Below, piece by piece: positions 7,251 through 41,259 of a stretch of DNA of 64,000 nt (within the stretch, counting starts at the first letter, position 1; every line of letters begins with the position of its first letter). The notes under the pieces are model-generated. The model did no database searches. It saw nothing but the letters and a program-made list of their open reading frames with translations, and was not told the origin of the DNA. The stretch spans positions 1,181-65,180 of the forward strand of contig DATKRK010000301.1 in the NCBI GenBank assembly GCA_035532215.1, in the 5' to 3' direction. Made by a program: the position numbers and the translations under genes. Source of the stretch: Pirellulales bacterium. Lineage in GTDB: Bacteria > Planctomycetota > Planctomycetia > Pirellulales > JAICIG01.

Positions 7251-7380
7251 TTCGAAAAAATGGAAAAAACCGCAGGGACGCCCAGTCGCGGCTTTTGACC
7301 GGGCCAGGCAGTGATGCCTGAGATCGAATGTCCATTATTTCCGGCGCCCGCGTGCGTCGCCCCGCAGCCTCCCGCACTAA

Positions 7381-7510
7381 CCCGGATTATTCATCAGCCC
7401 ACGCCAACCCGAAGCGCAAGCGAGGCGGAGCAACGCACTTACCTCGCTGGCGCTTCGGGTTTGTATGGAGCGCTTTGTCAAGTAATAGCTGGGCTGATGA
7501 ATAATCCGGG
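7381..7510. repeat. 130-bp nested-palindrome element
   Basis: Outer perfect 20-bp inverted repeat: cccggattattcatcagccc (7381-7400) with gggctgatgaataatccggg (7491-7510). Inner 20-bp inverted repeat: aacccgaagcgcaagcgagg (7406-7425) with cctcgctggcgcttcgggtt (7442-7461), 1 mismatch. Confidence 0.75.
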
Positions 7511-7581
7511 CTAACGCTGCGGCTCTTGAAGAACGCCTACGCCAAAGGATCGGGCGCGTGCCATAGGGCCTATTTTCAGAT

Positions 7582-8067: not shown

Positions 8068-8096
8068 GTCACCCATGGGGACGGAGTCCGCCCGAG
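8068..8096 (+). repeat. 29-nt motif copy 1 (gtcacccatggggacggagtccgcccgag), 80 nt upstream of the exosortase start
   Basis: Identical 29-mer also at 18910-18938. It contains CCATGG and the small palindrome GGAC-gga-GTCC. Confidence 0.8.
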
Positions 8097-8175: not shown

Positions 8176-9219
8176 ATGAAACGTGGAAATAGGCGCAAAA
8201 CGGCGTCGGTTCGGGATGTTGTCGCCCGAAGTTCGCGGTCTGCAGCGTGGGAAATCGCTCGACCTCAGGGCGATGTGGCAAGCGAATTGGTCGATGCCGC
8301 GGCGAACGCGGAGGCCTGGCGCGCAAAGATCGGAAACCCGGTCTTTTTAGCGGGTATCGCTATCGTCGCCGCCACGTTTGGTTGGTCCTACTGGCCAATC
8401 GCCTGCGAACTGGTTCGCATCTGGAATCACGAGCCCGACTACTCGCACGGGTATTTTGTCGTTCCGGCGGCGCTGTATTTTCTTTGGTTTCGCCGCGGCA
8501 GTCTGCCGGCGCCCAGCGATCGGCTGCAATGGGGCGGAATGGTTTTGCTGGTGTTGAGTGGGGCGATACGCTTTGCCGGCAGTCTTTGGTATATCGACGC
8601 ACTCCAAGCTTGGTCGATTCCGTTTTGGGTGGCCGGTACCTGCTGGCTCTTTGGCGGTTGGCGACTGCTATGGTGGAGCCTGCCCTCGGTTGGTTTTCTG
8701 GCGTTCATGATTCCGCTGCCCTTTCGGGCGGAACATTTGCTCAGTTTTCCGTTGCAACGCGTGGCCACGAAGCTCAGTTGCTGGCTGTTGCAGTCGCTCG
8801 GGCGTCCCGCTGTGGCCGAGGGCAATGTGATTTATTTGAACGACATCACCCTGGGCGTCGCCGAGGCGTGTAGCGGGCTGCGCATCTTCATGTCGATTGC
8901 CGCGTTGGCTTACATTTACATGGTGCTAGCCAAACGCGATTGGTGGATGAAGGCGATCCTGTGCGCCAGCGTGTTGCCTGTCGCCTTGTTGACCAATGCC
9001 GTGCGGATCGTCGCCACAGCGCTTCTGCACGAATGGGTTTCCGGCGAGGCTGCCCATAAGTTTTCTCACGATTTAGCGGGCTGGCTGATGGCGCCGCTGG
9101 CCGCCGGACTGTTGGGGCTAGTGAGTTGGTACCTCGGCCGGCTGTTGGTCGATGTGGAAATCGTTTCTCCAGGCGAACTGATGTTCGGAGTACATGGCGA
9201 CGGCAAAAGCAAACGATAA
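8176..9219 (+). CDS. xrtA: exosortase (XrtA/EpsH-like)
   Basis: N-terminal motif WNHEPDYSHGYFVVP, catalytic-Cys motif GVAEACSGLR and Arg motif LTNAVRIV in a polytopic membrane protein. The neighbourhood (EpsI, PEP-CTERM-locus-type glycosyltransferase, deacetylase, AsnB-type and FemAB-like genes) matches the XrtA-type system as I recall it. Confidence 0.9.
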   Translation: MKRGNRRKTASVRDVVARSSRSAAWEIARPQGDVASELVDAAANAEAWRAKIGNPVFLAGIAIVAATFGWSYWPIACELVRIWNHEPDYSHGYFVVPAALYFLWFRRGSLPAPSDRLQWGGMVLLVLSGAIRFAGSLWYIDALQAWSIPFWVAGTCWLFGGWRLLWWSLPSVGFLAFMIPLPFRAEHLLSFPLQRVATKLSCWLLQSLGRPAVAEGNVIYLNDITLGVAEACSGLRIFMSIAALAYIYMVLAKRDWWMKAILCASVLPVALLTNAVRIVATALLHEWVSGEAAHKFSHDLAGWLMAPLAAGLLGLVSWYLGRLLVDVEIVSPGELMFGVHGDGKSKR

Positions 9220-17841: not shown

Positions 17842-18762
17842 ATGGAAATCTTGAACGCATTAACCGTCGACGTCGAGGACTATTACCACGTCTCGGCCTT
17901 CGAGCGACACATCACCCGCGAACGTTGGCACGATTTCGACAGTCGCGTCGAGGCCAGCACGCGGCGATTGCTCGACATTCTGGCGGAAGCCGACACTCGC
18001 GCCACGTTTTTCGTCCTGGGCTGGGTCGCACGGCGCCATCCGGAACTGGTGCGGGAAATCCATGACGCAGGGCACGAGCTAGGCTCGCATAGCTTTTGGC
18101 ATAGGCTGGTGTTCGAACTTTCTCCCGAAGAATTCCGGAATGACCTGCGCGACTCTCGAGCGGTCCTGGAAGACGCCGCGGGACAGCCAATCACGGCTTA
18201 TCGGGCGCCTAGCTTTTCCATCACCCGTCGCTCGCAATGGGCGCTTGAGATTCTGGCCGAAGAGGGGTTCAATGTTGATTCCAGCATCTTTCCGATTCGG
18301 CACGATCGCTACGGCATCCCTGATGCGAATCCGCATTTGCACGAGATTTCGACGCCGGCCGGGCCTTTGCAGGAGTTTCCGCCTTCGGTCGTTCGTTTTG
18401 CACGCATGAACTTTCCTGTCTCCGGCGGCGGATACTTTCGGCTGTACCCGCTTTCTTGGACCGTCCGCGGCCTATCTCGCGTCAACGGCAAGGGGCGGCC
18501 GTTCATGTTTTATATTCACCCTTGGGAATTGGACCCCGATCAACCCCGGCTGGCCGCCGGCTCTCGGCTATCTCGGGCGCGGCATCGAGTGAACCTGGCG
18601 TCGACTGCGGAAAAGTTGAGGCGCCTGTTGGGACGATTTCGCTTTGGCCGCATGGACGAATCGATCGAAGCAACGCTCCGCGCAAACAACGGCGGCTCGG
18701 GCGGCGGCGAACGATGTTTACGAAAGGCAACGAAGCGTTGCGAAAGCGCCACGATCGAATGA
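17842..18762 (+). CDS. polysaccharide deacetylase (XrtA-system type, NodB fold)
   Basis: LTVDVEDYYHVSAFE..., ATFFVLGWVA, GHELGSHSFWH, RAPSFSI. Confidence 0.9.
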   Translation: MEILNALTVDVEDYYHVSAFERHITRERWHDFDSRVEASTRRLLDILAEADTRATFFVLGWVARRHPELVREIHDAGHELGSHSFWHRLVFELSPEEFRNDLRDSRAVLEDAAGQPITAYRAPSFSITRRSQWALEILAEEGFNVDSSIFPIRHDRYGIPDANPHLHEISTPAGPLQEFPPSVVRFARMNFPVSGGGYFRLYPLSWTVRGLSRVNGKGRPFMFYIHPWELDPDQPRLAAGSRLSRARHRVNLASTAEKLRRLLGRFRFGRMDESIEATLRANNGGSGGGERCLRKATKRCESATIE

Positions 18763-18909
18763 CAGGCATCGGACGACTGGAGCGGTCGGTGCGCTCGTAG
18801 CGACTACAAATGCGGCTCAATTGTTTTCTTCGCACCTCCGCCGCGCGGCGGCAAGTGCTTTGCATAACAGCGTCCGGTCGATGAGCAGATGGTTGGCTGG
18901 CGAGCTACA

Positions 18910-18938
18910 GTCACCCATGGGGACGGAGTCCGCCCGAG
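18910..18938 (+). repeat. 29-nt motif copy 2 (identical to 8068-8096)
   Basis: Exact match read in sequence. It lies in the gap between the deacetylase and the next glycosyltransferase, 29 nt before the hairpin element. Confidence 0.8.
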
Positions 18939-18967
18939 CTCTGTCCCCAGCCCATCAGTTCGCGGTC

Positions 18968-19078
18968 AGCATCGAGGATTAAATAACCTCCCAAATTCGG
19001 GCAAAGTCGCCGCAAATCCGCCCCACTATTGGGGTTCCGAGCGGGTGTGTGTAGGGAAGTTATTTAATCCTCGATGCT
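18968..19078. repeat. 111-bp inverted-repeat (MITE/REP-like) intercistronic element, copy 1
   Basis: 25-nt arms agcatcgaggattaaataacctccc (18968-18992) and gggaagttatttaatcctcgatgct (19054-19078), 24/25 complementary. The right arm is identical to that at 37637-37661. Confidence 0.8.
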
Positions 19079-19080
19079 CA

Positions 19081-20388
19081 GTGAAGTCGAGATTTAAGCA
19101 GATCGGCTTCCATCAGATTCCCGACGTTATTTCCTGTTCGACCTGCCTGACGCCGCCTCACTTGAATCTCTTGTACCTAGTTCATCGAATTCCCTACCCG
19201 CCAAACCGCGGTGATCGAATTCGTTCGTATCATTTGTTGAGGTTCCTCGCGGCGCGGTACGACGTGTATTTGGCTTGCCTGGCCGATGAGCCGGTACCGC
19301 CGGCACACGAGGCGGCGCTCCGGGAGTTTTGTCGGCGGCTCGCCATCGTTCCGTTGGGACGCAAAACTCGCTGGCTTAATGCGGCTGCAAAACGGATCCT
19401 GGGCCGATCAGCCACTGAAGGGCTTTTTGAGTCGCCAGCGTTACGAAGAATCGTAAGCGACTGGGCCGGTCAAACGCGATTCGACGTCGTCTTCGCATTC
19501 TGTTCAAGCATGGTCCCCTACCTCGAATTGCCGGCCCTGCGCGATGTCCCGGCGCTCATCGACTTTGTCGACGTCGACAGCCAAAAGTGGTTCGATTATG
19601 CCGAGACCGCGACCGGGTTGAAGCGCGCCCTCTTTGCCAGCGAGGGCCGCCGCGTGCGGCGACTCGAAATCGACGCGGCGCGCCGCGCTCGCGCTGTAGC
19701 AGTCGTTAGCGAAGCGGAGGCGGAACTTTGCCGCGAGCATTGCGCTCCGACTCCGGTTTATGGAATCGGCAACGGCGTCGACCTCGACTATTTCGGCGCC
19801 GTCTCGCCCCCGGAAGATTCGGCAGACCAGCCCCATTGCGTATTTGTCGGCGCCCTGGATTATCGGGCGAACGTGGACGGCATCACGTGGTTTTGCCGCG
19901 AGGTCTGGCCCGAAATGCGGCGGCGATATCCACAAGCTACGTTCACCGCGGTAGGCCGTAACCCGTCGGCAGTCGTATGCCGACTGGCCGATTTGCCGGG
20001 CGTACAGGTCGTTGCCGACGTGCCCGACGTGCGGCCTTACCTGGCACGTGCGTCGGCGGTCGTGGCGCCCTTGAGAGTCGCTCGCGGTATTCAAAACAAG
20101 GTGCTCGAAGCCCTGGCGGCGCGCCGCGCCGTTGTTGCTTCGAGCGGCGCTTTGGACGGGCTCGACGTAGAAGCGGGGCGTCATGCTTTGTGCGCTGATT
20201 TGCCCAGCGAATGGATTACGGCCTTGTCGCGGCTGTTCGACGACGCCGCCTTGCGAAACGAGTTCGGCGCTTCCGGCCGCGCCTTCGTCGAATTGCACCA
20301 TGGCTGGGCGCCCCGGCTGGCGCCGTTCGGCGATTTGCTTTCGAACTTAATCACCCAGCGGCGTGCCGTCGCAGCCAGTTGCCAATGA
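19081..20388 (+). CDS. glycosyltransferase, PEP-CTERM/EpsH1-system-associated type (GT4-like)
   Basis: LLYLVHRIPYPPNRGDRIRSYHLLRFLA is the characteristic N-terminus of this family. There is no ATG: candidate starts are GTG 19081 (3 nt after the repeat) or TTG 19162 (giving M-NLLYLVH). The track start 18889 reads through the repeats and is rejected. Confidence 0.85.
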   Translation: MKSRFKQIGFHQIPDVISCSTCLTPPHLNLLYLVHRIPYPPNRGDRIRSYHLLRFLAARYDVYLACLADEPVPPAHEAALREFCRRLAIVPLGRKTRWLNAAAKRILGRSATEGLFESPALRRIVSDWAGQTRFDVVFAFCSSMVPYLELPALRDVPALIDFVDVDSQKWFDYAETATGLKRALFASEGRRVRRLEIDAARRARAVAVVSEAEAELCREHCAPTPVYGIGNGVDLDYFGAVSPPEDSADQPHCVFVGALDYRANVDGITWFCREVWPEMRRRYPQATFTAVGRNPSAVVCRLADLPGVQVVADVPDVRPYLARASAVVAPLRVARGIQNKVLEALAARRAVVASSGALDGLDVEAGRHALCADLPSEWITALSRLFDDAALRNEFGASGRAFVELHHGWAPRLAPFGDLLSNLITQRRAVAASCQ

Positions 20389-36726: not shown

Positions 36727-37548
36727 ATGCCTTCTGACCTTGAACAGTTGCGATCGACCCAACTTCGAGAACGGATCGATTCTGAGCGCAGTTATCATGA
36801 CGATTACTACCGAGCCCTCCAAGAGCCTCTCGCCATCCCATTCGATCTGGCAAACAGCACACAACGGCGTCCGCATAACCTGACGTGGGCTTTTTACGAC
36901 GCCATCTTGGAGCACTTCGGCCGCCAACTTAATGGTAAGCGGATCCTAGAAATCGGCTGTGGAACCGGCTCCGTGACACTAAACCTATCAAGGAACGGCG
37001 CTTATGTCGACGCATTCGACGTTAGCGAGGAAGCGGTGGCTATTTGCATGCGGCGCGCTGCTTACAATAACGAGGAGAAGGCAAAGTTCCTCGTATCGGC
37101 CATGGAGGATTTAGATCAGCCTGAGAATTACTATGATGCAGTTGTGGGGCACATGGTGCTGCATCATCTCGATATTTCAGCGGCGATGGAAAAGGTCTAT
37201 CGGTACCTCAAACCGGGCGGCTTGGGCGTTTTCGCCGAATGGAAGGAGTATGCTGTTGTTGACCGTGTGCGACGCACAGCATTGCTACAATGGCTGTTCC
37301 GACCTGGCGGCGTGACGGGGTATGCGACCGAGTACGAGCGAAAACTTTCACGTCGCGACTTTCAGGTGATTCGCCGCCGGTTCCCTAATTTGACCGTCGA
37401 ATGCCGCTACTGTCTGCGAGGAAAAGTCGAATACTTCAGCCCCAGGATCGCGGCAAAGCTCGAACGATTCGACTGTCGGCTCTTGCAACTGCTTCCATGC
37501 CTCAATCCATTCACCGACGGCGCCGTGTTGTGTGTGACAAAAGAGTAA
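36727..37548 (+). CDS. class I SAM-dependent methyltransferase
   Basis: ILEIGCGTGSVTLNLSRNGAYVDAFDVSEEAV, YDAVVGHMVLHHL, LKPGGLGVF. Spot line counts give a locally lower GC of about 48-57%. Confidence 0.85.
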   Translation: MPSDLEQLRSTQLRERIDSERSYHDDYYRALQEPLAIPFDLANSTQRRPHNLTWAFYDAILEHFGRQLNGKRILEIGCGTGSVTLNLSRNGAYVDAFDVSEEAVAICMRRAAYNNEEKAKFLVSAMEDLDQPENYYDAVVGHMVLHHLDISAAMEKVYRYLKPGGLGVFAEWKEYAVVDRVRRTALLQWLFRPGGVTGYATEYERKLSRRDFQVIRRRFPNLTVECRYCLRGKVEYFSPRIAAKLERFDCRLLQLLPCLNPFTDGAVLCVTKE

Positions 37549-37661
37549 GCATCCAGGATTAAATAACCTCCCAAACTCAAATGTCGTTGGGGTCGTAAAC
37601 CAGCCTTGCGAAAGCGGTTGCAGCGGAAGCAGTATGGGGAAGTTATTTAATCCTCGATGCT
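37548..37661. repeat. 114-bp inverted-repeat (MITE/REP-like) intercistronic element, copy 2
   Basis: Arms agcatccaggattaaataacctccc (37548-37572) and gggaagttatttaatcctcgatgct (37637-37661). It starts on the last base of the upstream TAA and ends 12 nt before the next ATG. Its interior is unrelated to copy 1. Confidence 0.8.
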
Positions 37662-37673
37662 AAAGGCCCAATC

Positions 37674-38801
37674 ATGGCATTTAAGGGCAGCGGTACGAAA
37701 GCACTGATCGTTGAACGCATGGCACTACGAACCATCCTAGTTGGCTGCGGTGCGGTGGCCGGGACGCTTTACCGCAAGCCTTTGCAAGAACTGGAACGCC
37801 AGAGCGTGCTGCGCGTCGTCGCGCTCGTTGACAGTAAGCTGGATCACGCCGAGGCAATGCGCTCACGGTTCAGATCGGCCAGCGTCTGGAACGATTTAGC
37901 CCTAGCGTTGCAATCGCAGCAGCCGGACTTGACTCTGATTCTCAGCCCGCCGCATCTGCACTGCGACCAAGCGGTTCTGGCTCTGGAGCACCAAAGCCAT
38001 GTACTTTGTGAAAAGCCGATGGCGGCGTCGACCGCTCAATGCGCCGAAATGATTCGCGTCGCACGGGAAAGCAAGCGTGTTCTAGCTATCGGCATGATCC
38101 GCCGGTTTTTTCCCGCTTTCGCGCAACTCAAAACATTACTCGACACGGGCGAATTGGGAGAGATTCGCTCCTTTTGCTATCGTGAGGGCCGGGTGTTCGA
38201 CTGGGACGTCCGGACGCCCGCGCTCTTCGCCCGACAGCCTTCCGGCGGCGCCGGGCTGTTGTTCGATATCGGCTCGCACGCCCTGGACTACTTGCACTGG
38301 TTGTTTGGCGATTTGAGCGTGGTCTCGTATGCGGACGATGGCTACGACGGCGTGGAGGCCAATGCCTTACTCGAGCTGGCCGCGCCAAGCTGCCGTGGCA
38401 GGATGCAATTATCCTGGGATTCGCCCTTGCTGTGTGAGCTGCGCGTGACCGGCACAAAGGGCGAGGCCATCCTGCGTGTCGATCACCTCGACAAGCTCGC
38501 AGTCAAATGGAAAGGAGATTTCCAGGAAGTCGCGGTTCATCACTGCTATCCCGCAGATGTGCGCAATCCTAGTCTCAAGGCGATTGCACCAAGACTTTAC
38601 GCCGAAAGCATCTACTGTCAGCTAATCCAGCTCGTCCGCGCCATCGAATTGGCAGAGGCGCCCGCCGTGGACGGAGTCCAGGGGCAAGCCTGCGTCAGCC
38701 TCATCGAGGCGGCACGTCGTCGTGCCCGGCCGCTTGACGTTCCCTGGCTCGATCCCGAGCAGCAAGCGATGCATCAAGCTCTTCACTGGACGAACGCATG
38801 A
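37674..38801 (+). CDS. Gfo/Idh/MocA-family NAD(P)-dependent oxidoreductase
   Basis: ILVGCGAVAG...VVALVD (Rossmann) and the family motif VLCEKPMA. ATG 37719 is an alternative start. Confidence 0.85.
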   Translation: MAFKGSGTKALIVERMALRTILVGCGAVAGTLYRKPLQELERQSVLRVVALVDSKLDHAEAMRSRFRSASVWNDLALALQSQQPDLTLILSPPHLHCDQAVLALEHQSHVLCEKPMAASTAQCAEMIRVARESKRVLAIGMIRRFFPAFAQLKTLLDTGELGEIRSFCYREGRVFDWDVRTPALFARQPSGGAGLLFDIGSHALDYLHWLFGDLSVVSYADDGYDGVEANALLELAAPSCRGRMQLSWDSPLLCELRVTGTKGEAILRVDHLDKLAVKWKGDFQEVAVHHCYPADVRNPSLKAIAPRLYAESIYCQLIQLVRAIELAEAPAVDGVQGQACVSLIEAARRRARPLDVPWLDPEQQAMHQALHWTNA

Positions 38802-41146: not shown

Positions 41147-41259
41147 ATCCAGTTTGTCTTTTTGCGGCTGAGCGGGCGCCACCGCTGGGTTGTCGACGGT
41201 ACGCATGAGGTCATTTAATCCATCGGCTGTGTTGGTTCATCTAATTGTAGGTCGCTCGA

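Follow-up and report, generated by a model that had tools for sequence, protein, structure and literature searches.

Two short elements with ISAzo13-family ends between genes of a Pirellulales exopolysaccharide operon

Described elements and the setting of the two copies

Insertion sequences of the ISAzo13 family (PF07592, 'Rhodopirellula transposase DDE domain'; NF033519) are about 1.3 kb long and code for a transposase of roughly 380 amino acids. Their inverted repeats, GCATCGAGGATTAAATAACTTCCC, are identical or nearly identical to those of the two elements described here (copies 1 and 2), a 3-bp duplication at TNA is common to both, and the host range (Planctomycetota, Chloroflexota, Gammaproteobacteria, and Cyanobacteria) matches as well, whereas the two copies are 109 and 112 nt long and non-coding, with interiors unrelated to the subterminal regions of the insertion sequences. 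Short elements of comparable build have been described in other lineages. The Correia repeat-enclosed elements (CREE) of Neisseria resemble the copies: they, too, are MITEs, roughly 100-150 nt in length and bounded by inverted repeats of some 25 nt, and are often co-transcribed with neighboring genes as long RNA hairpins. They are unrelated in sequence and host, and CREE duplicate TA, whereas the copies described here duplicate 3 bp (TNA). CREE have proven promoter and IHF functions. RUP of Streptococcus pneumoniae and ERIC/IRU of enterobacteria are likewise small, non-autonomous, intergenic, bounded by terminal inverted repeats, and thought to be mobilized in trans, RUP by an IS630-family transposase; they differ from the copies in ends, target duplication, and lineage. 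REPs are imperfect palindromes of 20-40 nt with a GTAG/CGTC head (PMC3733652). REP/BIME elements are also repeated, palindromic, and extragenic, and are unlike the copies in size, end motifs, duplications, and transposase type.

The window, i.e. the whole stretch of 64,000 nt that was analyzed, holds an XrtA/PEP-CTERM exopolysaccharide locus, and the same region is present in the JGI metagenome contig 3300031672, Ga0307373_10000476. All genes of the locus lie on the plus strand. They include an exosortase (8176-9219), EpsI, a TIGR03006 deacetylase (17842-18762), a TIGR03087 glycosyltransferase (ORF 18889-20388, with homology from residue 94, near nt 19168), a methyltransferase (36727-37548), a Gfo/Idh/MocA oxidoreductase (37674-38801), and many further sugar-modifying genes. 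Copy 1 lies upstream of the glycosyltransferase homology, and copy 2 is located between the methyltransferase and the oxidoreductase; both are in sense orientation and flanked by co-directional genes, and just two of the more than 20 gene junctions of the operon carry such a copy.

Other repeats were observed in the window. The extended non-coding region that precedes the exosortase gene contains a second, unrelated MITE-like element (7377-7514). Its inverted repeats are 21 nt long (CCCGGATTATTCATCAGCCCA; 7381-7401 and 7490-7510), the 4-bp direct repeat CTAA flanks it on both sides (7377-7380 and 7511-7514), and a 27-nt palindrome is nested inside it (7399-7468). A Pirellulales contig (L063:5501-5522) matches this inner palindrome over 20-22 nt. 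At 743-778 and 815-850, with a spacing of 72 nt, the window also carries a direct repeat of 36 nt without mismatches, ATGCCTGGACGTCCGGAGACAACAGTCCCGCCGCGG.

Structure of the copies and of the copy 1 spacer

Copy 1 proper spans 18969-19077 (109 nt) and copy 2 proper spans 37549-37660 (112 nt), each bounded by near-perfect 24-nt terminal inverted repeats that follow the formula GCATC[G/C]AGGATTAAATAAC[C/T]TCCC. In copy 1, the left repeat (18969-18992, plus strand; GCATCGAGGATTAAATAACCTCCC) scored 45.3 bits and has the sequence of ISAzo13-family insertion sequence ends, the right repeat (19054-19077, plus strand) scored 41.0 bits, and the non-coding interior (18993-19053, plus strand) is 61 nt long. 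In copy 2, the left repeat (37549-37572, plus strand; GCATCCAGGATTAAATAACCTCCC) and the right repeat (37637-37660, plus strand) scored 41.7 and 43.0 bits, respectively, and enclose a non-coding interior of 64 nt (37573-37636, plus strand). The 17-nt core of the repeats, GGATTAAATAACYTCCC, occurs exactly four times in the window, where 0.08 occurrences would be expected at up to three mismatches.

A preceding sequence-only reading had described arms of 25 nt. The near-complementary repeats were recovered in both copies, and the outermost base of each arm proved to belong to a target-site duplication, which leaves repeats of 24 nt. With that base included, copy 1 (18968-19078) reads agcatcgaggattaaataacctccc ... 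gggaagttatttaatcctcgatgct and copy 2 (37548-37661) reads agcatccaggattaaataacctccc ... followed by the same right arm as copy 1; the 25-nt arms are then 96% complementary in copy 1 (18968-18992 and 19054-19078) and 92% complementary in copy 2 (37548-37572 and 37637-37661). The left arms of the two copies differ by a single base, and the right arms are identical at 25 of 25 positions, as had been reported. The placement given earlier was reproduced as well: counted with the outermost base, copy 2 begins with the final A of the TAA at 37546-37548, 12 nt separate its end from the ATG at 37674, and the GTG at 19081 follows the end of copy 1 after 2 nt.

The interiors had been called unrelated, and this does not hold, as a global alignment gave 35 matches over 61 and 64 nt, a score reached by 2 of 1,000 shuffles. 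Each interior also has close relatives at other loci. The two interiors represent two diverged subfamilies (subfamily 1 for copy 1, subfamily 2 for copy 2), whose mutual similarity is weak but significant.

No coding capacity was found in either copy. The sole long ORF that crosses one of them is 18889-20388, which is free of homology before residue 94. This is the JGI glycosyltransferase call of 499 amino acids, whose frame starts at 18889 and stays open through copy 1. Since TIGR03087 homology begins no earlier than residue 94, the JGI start is probably over-extended; roughly 93 codons at the front of the call would be an artifact, and the true start would be found around 19163-19168. Contrary to the earlier description, copy 1 leaves much of its gap unfilled, the spacer from the deacetylase stop (18762) to the glycosyltransferase homology (about 19168) being roughly 400 nt long. 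The same spacer holds one copy of an exact 29-nt direct repeat, GTCACCCATGGGGACGGAGTCCGCCCGAG (18910-18938), 30 nt upstream of copy 1; about 80 nt separate the other copy (8068-8096) from the exosortase gene (8176) downstream of it, and the chance expectation for such a repeat is 0. It is absent from the other fetched loci except two (L150 and L151) that represent the same contig region. The repeat may serve as a regulatory or leader motif specific to this locus; if so, the spacer 18763-19160 would be an internal control region and no plain intercistronic gap.

A degenerate third copy had been suggested at 41147-41225. A weight matrix of 28 nt, derived from 77 arms of the family, was used to score arm-like sites, and 20 shuffled windows served as the control. 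The best site in this interval (41201-41228, minus strand) scored 0.7 bits versus 41-45 bits for the real arms, and the maxima of all 20 shuffled windows (1.3-14.8 bits) were higher. The 17 nt at 41205-41221 (minus strand) have three mismatches to the core. In 41147-41225, a partner arm was lacking, BLAST gave no match to any element, and the fold was unremarkable (z = +0.26). The site was treated as a chance resemblance; a very decayed relic is conceivable, and the data do not support it.

Relatives, autonomous partners, and target sites

Further copies were sought at other loci, and both types were found at unrelated positions in many genomes with 86-97% identity. A scan with the 17-mer over one genome per species returned at least 108 stretches. 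As the 17-mer contains one degenerate position, about 100 chance matches were estimated for the collection scanned, and counts were therefore limited to arms with an extended signature (G.A at -7 and -5). Among the matches listed, 65 of 118 arms carried this signature, and TAA or TTA preceded 43 of these 65 family arms. Family arms among the matches listed were clustered in Pirellulales, Thermoguttaceae, Gemmataceae, and other Planctomycetota, and were also present in Caldilineaceae, Anaerolineales, a gammaproteobacterial MAG, Symploca, and others. Relatives of copy 1 over the whole length, with 86-94% identity, were L100, L133, L118/L129, and L135; its interior was also detected in L140-L142, L146, and L149, for a total of at least nine other sites of the copy 1 type. 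The copy 2 type was present at two other sites, L119 (97% identity over the element) and L131 (88%). For both types, the relatives are similar within the element only, and their flanks are unrelated.

Two observations on assemblies were made along the way. A Logan contig of the same organism (SRR8554485_12599, L151) ends at about 18997, just past the left repeat of copy 1, which is consistent with copy 1 being repeated in the source genome. In the Thermoguttaceae MAG SMAG_U14240, at least eight contigs (L008, L022, L027, L044, L057, L065, L080, and L106) break about 100-130 nt into the element, many of the contigs of this MAG ending at about 115-130 nt, and share the identical subterminal sequence AAACTGTGGTATCCTGTCGGATGG...; these breaks indicate that the assembly is fragmented by an ISAzo13-type element of high copy number.

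The 24-nt ends of the window copies are identical to the ends of 1.31-1.34 kb Planctomycetota elements that code for an ISAzo13 DDE transposase. Full-length elements with matching ends, 1309-1336 bp in length, were found at nine loci (L007, L085, L114, L116, L121, L124, L127, L134, and L136). Two of these, L007 and L085, have paired arms 1.3 kb apart with an ORF between them; the ORFs matched PF07592 (DDE_Tnp_ISAZ013) with E = 8e-97 and 1e-93 (324 and 314 bits, cutoff 26.9) and NF033519 (ISAzo13 family transposase) with 335.7 and 347.8 bits (cutoff 200). Similarity of the ISAzo13 transposases to the IS630 model NF033545 was weak (E = 2e-9 to 5e-12). A scan of metagenomes with the complete 24-nt end returned 38 stretches, including six further elements of 1335-1336 bp with the exact right-arm sequence of the window at both ends. 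By tblastn, an ISAzo13-family transposase was detected in 12 fetched loci, together with one marginal match, and none was detected in the 64-kb window. Insertion sequences annotated by NCBI as ISAzo13 family in cultured organisms have related ends, GGAACTGTCCCGAAATAACTTCCC with TTA flanks in Thiothrix and GGATTAAATAAGATCCA in Nostoc, the flanks of the two together being TTA/TAA. No similarity was seen between the interiors of the copies and the subterminal sequence of the full-length insertion sequences, and therefore an origin of the copies as simple internal-deletion derivatives was rejected.

Target-site duplications had also been proposed as a check, and both copies have them. Copy 1 is flanked by TCA on the left (18966-18968) and on the right (19078-19080), the junctions reading gcggTCA/GCATCG ... 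CGATGC/TCAgtg. Copy 2 is flanked by TAA (37546-37548 and 37661-37663), the junctions reading gagTAA/GCATCC...CGATGC/TAAagg; the left triplet doubles as the stop codon of the methyltransferase gene, being the last triplet of a frame of 282 codons, and the right one lies 10 nt upstream of the ATG at 37674. The generality of the duplication was assessed in a non-redundant set of 28 complete elements (20 of them short, 8 of full length). Identical 3-nt flanks were present in 22 of the 28, versus 1 of 28 for the next 3 nt outward, which served as the control; the 22 comprised 17 of the short elements and 5 of the full-length ones. The matching triplet was TTA seven times and TAA six times, the others counted as fitting TNA were GTA (twice) and TCA, and those outside TNA were AGA, TTC, TTG, ATA, TAC, and AAA. 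In the remaining six elements (L119, L121, L127, L136, L005, and L120) the flanks were not identical: five of the six differed by a single base, in four of the five at the middle position (e.g. TTA/TAA, TGA/TTA, TTA/TCA), and mismatches elsewhere were at the first position (L136), the third position (L005), or two positions (L120). Such flanks fit recombinants or assembly chimeras of TNA-flanked copies and not an imprecise duplication.

The duplicated triplet was a stop codon in 27 arms, and in 6 of these 27 a frame of more than 150 codons ended exactly there, as compared with 1 of 54 control frames; one of the six is the full-length insertion sequence L085, which adjoins the stop of a 462-amino-acid gene. 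Removal of copy 2 together with one TAA restores ...GAG TAA AGGCCCAATC ATG with a 10-nt spacer. The reconstructed empty sites of the two copies read ...CAGTTCGCGGTCAGTGAAGTCGAG... and ...AAAAGAGTAAAGGCCCAATCATGGC.... Among the contigs of homologs of the upstream methyltransferase, no precise empty site was found, and the closest homologous loci were non-syntenic.

Because the ends are common to transposase-coding elements, the flanks are duplicated, and the copies belong to a multi-copy family distributed over many sites and genomes, copies 1 and 2 are best read as non-autonomous MITEs of the ISAzo13 family inserted between genes of the Pirellulales polysaccharide operon, a reading to which we assign a probability of roughly 0.93. 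Both are short and non-coding, carry the ends of autonomous insertion sequences, and have a duplication of the same length as that of the parent elements, and their relatives occupy many unrelated sites. In the mechanism proposed, an ISAzo13-family DDE transposase supplied by a full-length copy elsewhere would recognize the 24-nt repeats GCATCSAGGATTAAATAACYTCCC, excise or copy the element, and insert it at a triplet of the form TNA, in most cases TAA or TTA, and fill-in of the staggered cut would give the 3-bp direct duplication. The copies would be mobilized in trans by such a transposase, and an active one may be present in the source genome. Insertion into a TAA stop leaves the upstream gene intact and restores the sequence before the downstream gene, exactly as seen in copy 2: a TAA stop is a harmless landing site because the 3-bp duplication supplies the stop again on the left side and rebuilds on the right what originally preceded the next gene. 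Insertions into operon spacers would be tolerated, and copies would thus come to lie between co-directional genes.

Alternative readings and meaning

One alternative holds that the host retains the stems as RNase III processing sites or 3'-end stabilizers that set differential expression within the operon. The plus-strand folds of copy 1 (-58.9 kcal/mol, z = -7.1) and copy 2 (-44.8 kcal/mol, z = -3.8) speak for such a role, and both strands of both copies form long hairpins well beyond shuffled controls. Co-transcription would give RNA stems of 24-25 bp, which might plausibly serve as a substrate of RNase III or protect a 3' end. There is a precedent in the Correia elements of Neisseria, to which RNase III binds, either cleaving or protecting them (PMC2649163). 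The sense orientation of both copies amid co-directional genes also agrees with a role in RNA, but an orientation shared by two copies has a chance probability of 0.5. The stems are the ends recognized by the transposase, and since the transposase-binding sequence is required at both ends, their complementarity needs no selection at the RNA level. The same elements are found at many unrelated loci, and scans around both copies detected no sigma-70-like promoter or intrinsic terminator within either one. On balance, retention by the host for RNA processing is considered unlikely. A structured RNA family was also tried as an identity for the copies and rejected, as no Rfam match at the gathering threshold was obtained in the whole window.

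A broader form of this idea treats the family as a 'stop-codon lander', which would prefer TAA stops, insert there without a scar, and have its hairpins co-opted for processing or stability in Planctomycetota polysaccharide operons. We regard it as an improbable extension of the ISAzo13 MITE reading. The preference for TNA targets together with purifying selection against coding disruption explains the intercistronic position, and therefore a dedicated function is not needed.

The earlier reading had offered 'REP/BIME-type or MITE-type' elements without choosing between them. The MITE half of this stands, given the ends of autonomous insertion sequences, the 3-bp duplications, and the many loci, and the REP/BIME half falls on size and ends. 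Palindromes spread by a RAYT (IS200/IS605-like) transposase would likewise be palindromic, intergenic, and repeated, but the present units are about 110 nt long, as opposed to 20-40 nt, their terminal repeats measure 24 nt, their core is not palindromic, and their ends begin with GCAT or GGA and not with a GTAG/CGTC head. Moreover, 3-bp duplications and ends matching those of DDE-transposase insertion sequences point to a different mechanism, so that a REP/BIME identity is very improbable. Least credible of all, integron attC sites serving as cassette boundaries in the polysaccharide locus would share the imperfect inverted repeats, the variable centers, the co-directional neighbors, and arms with ...AAC / GTT..., but the arms AAATAAC / GTTATTT do not fit the RYYYAAC / GTTRRRY core sites, direct 3-bp duplications are present, the contexts across phyla are not those of cassettes, the ends are common to insertion sequences, and an element is carried by only two of more than 20 operon junctions.

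MITEs as such are well known, and the two copies are real but unsurprising; their use lies in annotation and in the description of ISAzo13. MITEs of this family break metagenome assemblies and mislead gene callers, as in the JGI glycosyltransferase call that runs through copy 1. Among the titles and abstracts searched in the ISAzo13 and Planctomycetes MITE literature, none was found that describes ISAzo13-derived MITEs. For the host, the copies would be relevant only if their hairpins change how the XrtA/PEP-CTERM polysaccharide operon is expressed. The ISAzo13 family itself, which is poorly characterized, gains the end consensus G[G/C]AYYSN-GGATTAAATAACYTCCC, a target of 3 bp (TNA), and evidence from several phyla that non-autonomous derivatives exist.
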